From: an uncultured Chloroflexia bacterium | Lineage (GTDB): Bacteria > Chloroflexota > Limnocylindria > Limnocylindrales > CSP1-4 | DNA: 64,000 bases | NCBI GenBank assembly: GCA_963819655.1 | Contig: CAWFXA010000003.1 | Location: 832,001 to 896,000, forward strand | Direction: 5' to 3' | Part shown: piece by piece, positions 25,401 to 28,289 of the stretch | How positions within the stretch are numbered: position 1 is the first letter of the stretch | How the letters are laid out: each line of letters begins with the position of its first letter | Made by a program: the position numbers

Positions 25401-28289
25401 GCCACGCCCGCTCGATCGTCTGTGTCCGCTCCGGCCCGACCGACACCAGCACGATCGGGACGCCGGCGTGCGACTCGATCGCCGAGACGTACCCGCGGGC
25501 GTTCTCCGGCAGGTCGCGCAGCGAGCGGATGTCGTTGAGCGGCTCGGCCCAGCCGGGGTACTCGTCAAAGATGGGCTTCGCGCGCGCGAGGGCCGCGCCA
25601 CTCGACGGCCAGGTCTCGATGCGGCGACCGTCGATCTCATAGGCCACACAGATCCGCAGCGTGTCGATCCCGGACAGGATGTCGAGCTTGTTGAGCATGA
25701 TCGAGCTGACGCTGTTGACCGCCACCGCATAGCGCAGCGGCACGGCGTCGAACCAGCCGACTCGCCGCGGTCGACCGGTCACCGTGCCGAATTCGTGGCC
25801 GCGCTCCGCGATCCCCTGTCCGATGCCGTCGAGCAGCTCCGTCGGGTACGGTCCCGAGCCGACGCGCGTCGAGTACGCCTTCATGACGCCGATGACCTCG
25901 TCGACCTGGAGCGGCCCGATGCCTCCGCCCGTGCACGCCCCGCCGGCGACCGGGTTCGAGGAGGTGACGTACGGGTAGCTCCCGTGATCGAGGTCGAGGA
26001 GTGTGCCCTGCGCGCCCTCGAGCAGGACGTGCTCGCCACGCGCGAGGGCCGCCTGGACCAGCCACGTCGTGTCGTCCAGGTGGTCGCGCAGGCGCTCGCC
26101 CCACCCGAGGGCCTCGTCGACGAGCGCATCGACGGTGAATGTCTCGCCGCCCATCGATGACAGCAGGAGGTTCTTGTCCGGCAGCAGTCGGCCGAGCCGT
26201 TCGCGGAGGATCTCGCGATCGAGCAGGTCCTCCATGCGCAGCCCCAGCCGCCACGCGCGGTCGGCGTACGCCGGCCCGATCCCGCGACCGGTCGTCCCGA
26301 CGGCCGCAGCCGCCAGGCGCGCCTCGTTCGCTTGGTCCAGCGCGAGGTGGTACGGCATGATCACGTGCGCGCTACGACTCACCCTGACCCGGGCGACGTC
26401 GATGCCGCGCTCGGTCAGCATGTCGAGCTCGGTGATGAGCGTCAGCGGGTTGACCACGACACCGTTGCCGATGACCGATGTGATGTGCGGGTACAGCACG
26501 CCGGACGGTGTCAGCCGCAGCTTGAAGACCTCGTCACCGCGGACGACAGTGTGGCCGGCGTTGTCGCCGCCCTGGTAGCGCACGACCATCGCGGTCTGCT
26601 CAGCCAGGAAATCGGTCGTCTTGCCCTTGCCCTCGTCGCCCCATTGCAGCCCGACGATCACGGTCGCCGGCATCAGAACGGCGCCCCGGACGGAGATGAC
26701 GAGCGCCCAACAAAAAAGGCCCACAAAGGGCCTTGGGTAGACTGCTCCCGTGGTGCTCCGCCGATGCGTCGGCGGATCGCCGGTGGCTGGTCGCCCGACC
26801 GCCTCACCGGACGGCCGATGCGCCATTCTCGCGCGATCGTTGACCTCCTGTTCACGGGCGGACCCGCTGCGGTCGAGGACGGGCGGAGTATAGCAGCGGG
26901 TGTCGGGCCCTCGTCCATCGGCGGTACCACCGTCGGGAGGTCGCGGTACCACCGGCGGGTCCGTGTGCCCCGGCTCCGCCCCTAGCCTTGTCGGGTGGCC
27001 CGTCTGTACGGGATCCTGGCGCTAGGTGCTGTCGTCGGGATCGGGATCCTGCTCATGTTCGCCCCCGAATCGTTGGCCCCGTGGGTCGATCTCGGGGTCA
27101 GACCTGTTATCACGGCCCTTGTCGCCGCGGGCCTCGGCGTCGCGCTCACCTCGATCCTCGTGCGCGCCCACCAGGCCTACCGCTTCGGGCGCCTGGTCAA
27201 GGCCGCCGAGCGAATCGCCGCAGGGGATTACACCGCGTACGTCGCCCCGCGCGGGACCGGGCTCGAGTCCCGTCTGGCCCACGCGGTCAATGAGATCGCC
27301 GCAGCCCTCGTCGACACCCACGACCGCGCGACCGTCGACCGGCTGACGGGCGTCGCGAACCGGCAATCCCTTCTGGCTGCGCTCTTCGCCGAGGCCGAGC
27401 GGGCCTCGCGCTATGGGCGGCCGCTGTCCGTCGCGTTCGTCGACATCGACCACTTCAAGACCGTCAACGACACGTACGGTCACGCCGTCGGCGACATCGT
27501 GCTGCGGGGCGTCGCCCAGGCGATCGCTGCGAACCTGCGCACGTCCGACATGATCGGGCGCTACGGCGGCGAGGAATTCATGCTGATCCTGACCGAGACG
27601 AACATCGAGGAAGGGGCGGCCCTCACCGAGAAGCTGCGGACGCTCGTCCAGCGGCAGCGCTTCGCGATCGAAGGCGCAGGCGATATCGCCGTGACCATCT
27701 CGATCGGCATCGCCGGTGGCTCCGGGAGCCAGCTGCGCATGGACACGCTCGTGCGGGACGCGGACGCGGCGATGTACTCGGCGAAGTCGCTCGGCCGCAA
27801 CCAGACATACGTCTTCGCCGAGCCTGACGACGATGCCCGCGTCCCACGGGCTCCGATCTCGGCGGCCGGCCGGGCACGGGCAGTGGAGATCGGGCAGCGC
27901 GCCCGGGATGCGTCGATGGCCGCGCTGACGTCGGTGCTCAACCCGCTCCCCCACTACCGCGGCCAGCCGTCGGCGCTGATCGCCTCGATCGTCGTGTCGC
28001 TCGCGCGCCAGCTCCAGCTGTCCGATGCCGAGATCGACCGGCTGCGGGTGGCGGCGCTTCTCCACGATGTCGGCAAGATCGCCGTACCCGAGGAGATCCT
28101 CGAAAAGCCGTCGGCGCTGACGTCGGCGGAGTGGCGGACCGTCGTCCAGCACCCGCGCATCGGTCAGGTGATCCTCGAGCAGGCGGCGGCACTCAAGGAC
28201 GCGGTCCCGATCATCCTCCACCACCACGAGCGCTACGCCGGCCACGGCTACCCGTTCGGGCTGCGCGCGAACGAGATCCCGCTCGGCGC

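Follow-up and report, generated by a model that had tools for sequence, protein, structure and literature searches.

Upstream of purA, the first gene of a purine biosynthesis cluster in an uncultured Chloroflexia bacterium (Limnocylindria; Limnocylindrales; CSP1-4), lies a conserved leader that we interpret as a ribosome-dependent transcription attenuator of the purine operon, translationally coupled to purA, a reading to which we assign a probability of about 60 %. The leader was analysed within a 64,000-nt stretch of assembly GCA_963819655.1 (contig CAWFXA010000003.1, positions 832,001 to 896,000 of the forward strand), referred to here as the window; positions are those of the window, and features of the leader and of purA lie on the minus strand unless stated otherwise. 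An earlier note on this stretch had described a cis-regulatory leader before the pur cluster and taken it for a variant or new purine-related sensor RNA. The regulatory leader itself was borne out by a conserved promoter, an intrinsic terminator and downstream pur genes identified with Pfam. It had, however, been read as untranslated, and we found a conserved reading frame with a Shine-Dalgarno (SD) sequence, which points to ribosome-mediated attenuation rather than, or besides, direct metabolite sensing.

Promoter, terminator and distribution of the conserved leader

The leader is preceded by an extended -10 promoter element, TGCTATACT (TG-n-TATACT, 26895-26887), which the earlier note had recognised and which is invariant in 29/29 aligned relatives of the genus; related forms are present in other genera. 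Transcription probably starts near 26880, ~7 nt downstream of TGCTATACT, at a conserved GUCCUCG motif, giving a distance of ~207 nt to the purA ATG (26673) that agrees well with the leader of ~200 nt first proposed. The conserved RNA between the promoter and the end of the terminator spans ~165 nt.

The intrinsic terminator (26734-26709) consists of the stem AAGGCCC/GGGCCUU (26734-26716) with a UUUGU loop, followed by a U-run. It lies ~35 nt before purA, as described previously, and because this distance is so short there is no room for a promoter downstream of it. It is the only terminator-like site in 26300-27300 (shuffles give 0.1), and no further strong terminator-like site was found on the minus strand between 14000 and 26700. 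By a strict rule, a hairpin with a U-rich tract is present at this position in 47/51 sequences of the genus, the remaining four having interrupted U-runs, and in 77/97 of all leaders. The inspected leaders that were missed by the strict rule likewise had a hairpin followed by an interrupted U-run, with the exception of L208 (genus g17), which has no terminator. The sequence of the terminator is variable, while its structure and position are conserved.

DNA searches revealed the leader in 119/131 genomes of the genus, including all 24 of those of high quality, and in each of 30 fetched loci it was located directly upstream of purA on the same strand. Most species share 74-87 % identity in the leader; their flanks could not be aligned. 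A covariance model (R1) built from 49 leader sequences matched the leader in 63/108 other genomes of the family and in 17/28 genera of the order sample, and did not find it in 106 genomes from four other families of the class. Outside the genus, all 42 fetched R1 matches were upstream of purA, and three weak matches elsewhere were attributable to chance; each genome had one strong match, and every strong match examined was at purA. Five genera without an R1 match were read by eye, of which three have a diverged leader, one has a reduced leader lacking the terminator and one has none.

A selected reading frame runs through the terminator

The SD sequence AGGAGG (26849-26844), whose GGAG is invariant in 51/51 sequences, is followed after 6-7 nt by an invariant AUC (26837-26835). 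This AUC opens a leader open reading frame (ORF) of 54 codons (26837-26673) that passes through both hairpins described below and the terminator and ends at a UGA (26675-26673) overlapping the purA ATG (26673-26671). Stop-start overlap recurs in 46/51 species across 26 distinct AUC-to-start lengths, the distance being a multiple of 3. The pairs are TGA-ATG (38), TAA-ATG (5) and TAG-GTG (3), read in the RNA as UGAUG, UAAUG and UAGUG, i.e. the URRUG overlap expected of translational coupling. All three GTG starts carry TAG and not TGG, showing that the stop was kept by a second change.

The frame is also maintained along its length. Internal stops are absent from the AUC frame in 29/29 sequences, whereas the other two frames contain stops in 26/29 and 17/29. 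Neither the terminator segment nor the spacer has a constant length modulo 3, but together they preserve the frame in 48/50 sequences; 1-nt insertions or deletions occur only between the SD sequence and AUC, and those located after AUC are of 3 nt or compensated. From this pattern, we read the leader as translated. Column entropy by codon position (0.52, 0.54 and 0.56) revealed no codon periodicity, and because variability is equal across codon positions, it is translation and frame, not the peptide, that appear to be selected, as would be expected for a regulatory upstream ORF. The ORF ranges from 46 to 108 codons in length, and the peptides of this long form are unrelated and Arg-rich.

We infer that AUC is the start codon from its spacing to the SD sequence and from two relatives outside the genus (L092 and L105) that keep AUC in frame with a different stop. 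Other start codons were considered and rejected: 4/29 sequences lack the in-frame GUG of the hairpin loop, and a GUG/UUG 13-14 nt after the SD sequence is confined to some members of the genus and opens a frame to the UGA at the hairpin apex. An antisense gene was likewise rejected as an explanation of the modulo-3 pattern, with stops in the antisense frame in 12/29 sequences.

An insertion of ~130 nt separates the leader terminator from purA in 18/51 genus members (L004, L006, L008, L015, L018, L019, L021, L022, L024, L025, L028, L033-L035, L040, L044, L048 and L052). It carries a conserved inverted repeat (CGCTCACGCAC...GTGCGCTCGC), and the leader ORF remains open and in frame through it in most carriers. 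The leader of L033 is 97 % identical to that of the window, yet L033 carries the insertion and the window does not. An apparently conserved antisense 'peptide' within the insertion was rejected, as it has no consistent frame or start.

Short and long forms of the leader ORF

In most other genera, CGAUCGCGCGAG is replaced by xxUUGCUCGAGGAAGGCGC, which supplies a UUG (GUG in one) 5-8 nt after the SD sequence. The resulting short ORF comprises 8-10 codons, starts with UUG, GUG or AUC, and ends at an invariant UGA in the apex (CCGUGAG) of a covarying hairpin; the consensus of its peptide is M-L/P-E-E-G-A-x-F/S-A/V-P. Among 46 sequences of other genera, 31 have the short form and 13 a long form ending at the purA start, with two exceptions, one in each group. 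L092 and L105 have their AUC one position before the place otherwise taken by UUG, and deletions of 1 and 7 nt bring it back into frame with the UGA. In L096, from the same genus, the UGA is gone and the frame continues to purA. One genus therefore holds both states, indicating that the short and long forms have interchanged. In the window, AUC lies 31 nt, not 30, from the apex UGA, which is thereby out of frame and bypassed.

The reduced leader of L208, from which both the terminator hairpin and the U-run are absent, contains a UUG-start ORF of ~30 codons that runs past CCCGUGAGG in another frame and stops on the purA start. It may represent a translation-only version of the element.

Structure of the leader RNA

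Helices were tested on a 49-sequence alignment of the genus and a 58-sequence alignment of the family fitted to the covariance model. The minimum-free-energy (MFE) fold of 219 nt is not more stable than shuffles (z = -0.95); hence, support for the leader structure comes from conservation and not from folding energy. The structure is conserved in relatives, with covariation at P4 and at a long hairpin. P4 (26776-26757; UCCGCCGA/UCGGCGGA), the perfect 8-bp stem of the earlier note, is confirmed by compensatory changes in both genus and family, those in the genus being GC to AU/UA in 8 sequences and CG to GC in 2. The long hairpin of 13 bp (26824-26789), identified via RNAalifold, has a 5' arm at 26824-26810, a CGGUGA loop at 26809-26804 and a 3' arm at 26803-26789. 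It is 97 % paired in the genus, where changes are only one-sided and wobble-compatible, and the family alignment shows two-sided changes at two pairs (12 and 25 cells). Its loop holds the UGA (26806-26804) that is the stop of the short leader ORF in other genera.

Two hairpins proposed previously fared less well. The first (26839-26816), whose stem would include the AUC start codon, is possible in every genus member and 97 % paired; however, it never covaries, changes at two pairs break them, and it is mutually exclusive with the better-supported long hairpin. It is possible that it hides the start codon. The second (26810-26780) is particular to the window's sequence, the matching pairs holding in 25-48/51 relatives. 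The helix P1 (CCCGUG, 26858-26853, with CACGGG, 26752-26747), thought to close the structure, can form, with weak support: 81 % of cells are paired, compensatory changes are few, and outer pairs are often broken, the fifth pair in 21/49 sequences.

The 3' strand of P1 opens a CGGGAG...GUCUAYCC tract (26752-26735) that reaches the terminator and is near-invariant in the family. CCCGYG occurs twice in the leader, and both copies can pair with CRCGGGA; the potential partners of the latter are the P1 5' strand, the CCCGUG at the apex of the long hairpin (in folds) or, as a weak alternative available in 24-28/29 sequences, the CCC of the terminator 5' arm, which can pair with its GGG. The purine-rich tracts GAGGAAGG and GGGAGAGG are also conserved. 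Close to the 5' end, the CCUC within GUCCUCG (26878-26875) is complementary to the GAGG of the SD sequence and can pair with 26847-26844 in 49-51/51 sequences, both sides being invariant and hence without covariation information. In MFE folds of other genera, the partner of UCCUCGA is instead UCGAGGA, within the opening codons of the leader ORF. The 5' CCUC is a candidate anti-SD element.

The leader did not match any known RNA family, in agreement with the earlier note. At gathering thresholds, an Rfam scan of the window returned only a tRNA, located elsewhere; a permissive scan of 26600-27050 (E <= 10) returned three chance matches to unrelated families (E 1.8-3.3), and a scan of 20 diverse relatives (E <= 1) returned nothing on the leader. 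The covariance models for ZTP (pfl), purine/guanine and ykkC-type (PRPP/ppGpp/guanidine) riboswitches had no match in the window or in the 20 relatives, nor did the Rfam PyrR-site model match the leader. None of the outcomes by which the earlier note would have been refuted, namely a strong Rfam hit, a lack of structural conservation in relatives or a purA promoter downstream of the terminator, was encountered.

Metatranscriptome contigs from one study, at low depth, cover 26713-26940, 26716-26807 and 26778-26898. Two of them end at the terminator (26713 and 26716), a weak hint of terminated leader RNA; none bridges 26676-26712, a gap that proves nothing. The contigs hold 4-15 % of the sampled words.

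Proposed mechanism and alternative explanations

Conservation was observed directly for the promoter, the SD sequence, the frame, the stop-start overlap, the hairpins and the terminator. The leader thus combines a conserved SD sequence, start and in-frame stop with a terminator and, as in pyrBI-type systems, this terminator (26734-26709) lies within an ORF (26837-26673) that ends at the structural gene. From these features, we would predict the following scheme, including where transcription starts, that AUC is used, how translation affects termination and in which direction the operon is regulated. Transcription would start ~7 nt after TGCTATACT and yield a leader RNA with a strong SD sequence and a weak start codon, AUC, opening the 54-codon frame across the covarying long hairpin, P4 and the terminator to the stop on the purA start. 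A ribosome that initiates here and stays close behind RNA polymerase would block the terminator hairpin, allowing the operon to be transcribed, and on terminating could re-initiate at purA. Should initiation fail or the ribosome lag, the terminator would form and the ~165-nt leader RNA would be released. Access to the ribosome-binding site would probably be set by competing structures, namely CCUC against the SD sequence and the AUC hairpin against the long hairpin. Candidates for the signal are polymerase pausing at the purine-rich tracts that is sensitive to purine nucleoside triphosphates (NTPs), or a ligand or protein acting on the invariant stretches.

Several observations weigh against this scheme. 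The primary sequence of CCGUGAG, CGGGAG...GUCUAUCC and GAGGAAGGCGC is kept family-wide beyond what pairing or an open frame needs, an excess that points to a ligand, a protein or the polymerase recognising these stretches. In the short-ORF genera, the ribosome stops ~95 nt before the terminator, a distance at which direct masking of the terminator by the ribosome cannot work. No convincing antiterminator was found, and folds with the 5' part masked still form the terminator; in the window's form, a ribosome directly masking the terminator would make an antiterminator unnecessary. No end-product regulatory codons of the kind used by leader-peptide attenuators, and no codon enrichment linked to purines, were found in the leader peptides of either form, and AUC initiates poorly in those bacteria in which its use has been assayed. 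Five of the 51 genus members break the stop-start rule, through one frameshift, one record with masked bases, one stop located 2 nt earlier and two stops in the 130-nt insertion. The antisense frame is also open in 17/29 sequences, as expected at 70 % G+C. Finally, the metatranscriptome contigs reach 26898 and 26940, upstream of the predicted transcript start, and could represent DNA.

More tentatively, the weak-start (AUC/UUG) ORF and the invariant core (CCGUGAG, CGGGAG...GUCUAUCC) might jointly read a purine-related signal as a sensor of an as yet undescribed type, a proposal we consider possible rather than probable. It has two variants, a new riboswitch class that gates translation of the leader or NTP-sensitive pausing as the purine counterpart of pyrBI, and it includes repeated switching within the lineage between a 10-codon ORF ending at the hairpin apex and a long ORF running through the terminator onto purA. 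A metabolite-binding riboswitch of a new class with the ORF as a mere read-out device or accessory seems to us rather unlikely. Here, P1 (CCCGYG/CRCGGG) would close a three-way junction with the long hairpin and P4, and a purine-related ligand would stabilise the fold, hide the ribosome-binding region adjacent to P1 and free the terminator, making it an OFF switch. The strong family-wide conservation of CCGUGAG, CGGGAGA.GUCUAUCC and GAGGAAGGCGC at junction, loop and tail positions favours this explanation, as do P4, which is variable in sequence yet covaries like a typical riboswitch peripheral stem, the alternative pairing of the P1 3' GGG with the terminator CCC (24-28/29), the gene context, which is purine biosynthesis only, and the lack of a known RNA family that fits. 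However, P1 is weak (81 % paired, fifth pair broken in 21/49), the single-sequence fold is not unusually stable, and a pure RNA sensor leaves unexplained both the conservation of frame through terminator and spacer and the compensation in L092 and L105.

These frame constraints are equally unaccounted for by protein binding alone, and we regard as improbable an attenuation mediated by an RNA-binding regulator of the PyrR or TRAP kind, which would bind the apex loop and/or CGGGAG...GUCUAUCC and set the terminator or the translation of the leader. Invariant, single-stranded-looking motifs for which no pairing partner was found in alignments or folds would suit such a protein, and the presence of the element once per genome and only at purA is as expected for the site of a dedicated regulator; however, there is no candidate regulator gene in or beside the operon, the neighbour being a GGDEF/HD-GYP membrane protein, and the Rfam PyrR-site model found no match. 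It is least probable that the element is an independent gene for a small RNA or a small basic protein of ~54 aa with no regulatory link to purA. The element does have its own promoter and terminator, an ORF with an SD sequence, and contigs from an RNA library that cover 26713-26940 and end at the terminator. Nonetheless, it is always directly before purA on the same strand (30/30 and 42/42 loci), its stop is tied to the purA start, and its peptide is not conserved, varying from 46 to 108 codons; furthermore, the ORF extends past the terminator, leaving the terminated RNA without a stop codon.

Genomic context

purA (26673-25366) encodes an adenylosuccinate synthetase of 435 aa and is followed on the same strand by purD, purB, purC/purS, purQ, purL, purF, purM and purN/purH, as assigned with Pfam. 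purL is represented by two ORFs (18990-20474 and 18236-19843, minus strand) that overlap and differ in frame, and the ORF at 21350-22966 (minus strand) has only a partial SAICAR-synthase match followed by PurS. Frameshifts or assembly indels could account for both in this three-contig assembly.

The leader occupies the divergent intergenic region 26674-26994, which purA shares with a plus-strand gene (26995-28728) encoding a membrane protein with GGDEF and HD-GYP-type HD domains, a combination that points to cyclic di-GMP turnover. Just upstream of the purA promoter, CGGTGGTACC is present twice (26954-26945 and 26932-26923, minus strand), 22 nt apart. Each copy is situated inside an imperfect palindrome, GGYGGTACCRCC, with the second spanning the -35 region. 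Many relatives of the genus keep both copies as CGG(T/A)GGTACC, which were not observed outside it; a transcription factor that regulates purA, the divergent GGDEF gene or both could use them as its operator.

Elsewhere in the window's genome (L031, G000:C3:674100-675100), the same promoter-plus-start motif as at the purA leader, GCTGCTATACTCC, precedes an aspartate-semialdehyde dehydrogenase-like gene (asd). Similar 30-nt promoter matches are present at other loci in relatives, indicating a common promoter type of the lineage. Second copies of the leader, suggested by these promoter-proximal matches, were consequently rejected, the match in the window's genome being the same promoter type before asd.

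Comparison with known systems

Purine operons are known to be controlled by PurR-type repressors and by guanine, ZTP and PRPP riboswitches. The purine/guanine, ZTP/pfl and ykkC PRPP/ppGpp riboswitches have in common with the leader described here a position in the 5' leader of pur genes and a terminator as the expression platform, and its CGGGAG and GUCCCGAGAG-like stretches presumably resemble strings of purine-pathway riboswitches. In contrast to these, the leader is translated and matches none of the corresponding Rfam covariance models. Full-text searches of the literature found no leader-ORF attenuator for purA or a pur operon.

The short-ORF genera recall the trp, his and ilv attenuators and the Corynebacterium ilvB-II motif, in which an ORF with an SD sequence likewise forms the 5' arm of a hairpin, with its stop near the apex and a terminator downstream. 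Among long leaders of other kinds, those of Salmonella mgtA and mgtCBR act largely through other termination routes. They combine an upstream ORF with a sensing RNA, and translation of their short ORFs is proposed to select one of several alternative stem-loops (PMC3641672), as may be the case in the purA leader, which is likewise long; organisms, signals and sequences differ.

The nearest parallel to the window's form is E. coli pyrBI, where the terminator lies within the leader-peptide gene; ribosomes close behind the polymerase suppress intrinsic terminators (PMC4824070). In both cases, the terminator is located in a translated leader ORF that ends before (in pyrBI) or on (here) the first nucleotide-biosynthesis gene, and a closely following ribosome would suppress it (PMC4824070). 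pyrBI differs in being a pyrimidine operon sensitive to uridine triphosphate, while the leader described here precedes a purine operon, starts with AUC or UUG and has a stop overlapping the purA start. Furthermore, no U-rich pause region is evident here, there is no sequence relationship, and relatives also possess the short-ORF form with its stop at the hairpin apex.

If confirmed, the purA leader would do for purines what the pyrBI mechanism does for pyrimidines, in an uncultured, widespread lineage of high G+C that is found in soil-type samples. The short apex-stop ORF, the long read-through ORF and the terminator-less form would provide a natural evolutionary series in which the position of the ribosome could be related to intrinsic termination, and the leaders suggest that AUC and UUG regularly serve as regulatory start codons. 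They also counsel caution: before a conserved element is taken for an 'orphan riboswitch', conservation of a reading frame should be looked for. This last point has a precedent in Corynebacterium ilvB-II, where a conserved 'RNA motif' upstream of ilvB turned out to be an upstream-ORF attenuator (PMC10272879). Relative to ilvB-II and to the trp, his and ilv attenuators, the purA leader has no run of regulatory codons and no identified antiterminator, serves a nucleotide and not an amino acid pathway, and is far more conserved in primary sequence; as an element that was first seen as a conserved RNA motif, ilvB-II (PMC10272879) is nevertheless the closest analogue in approach.

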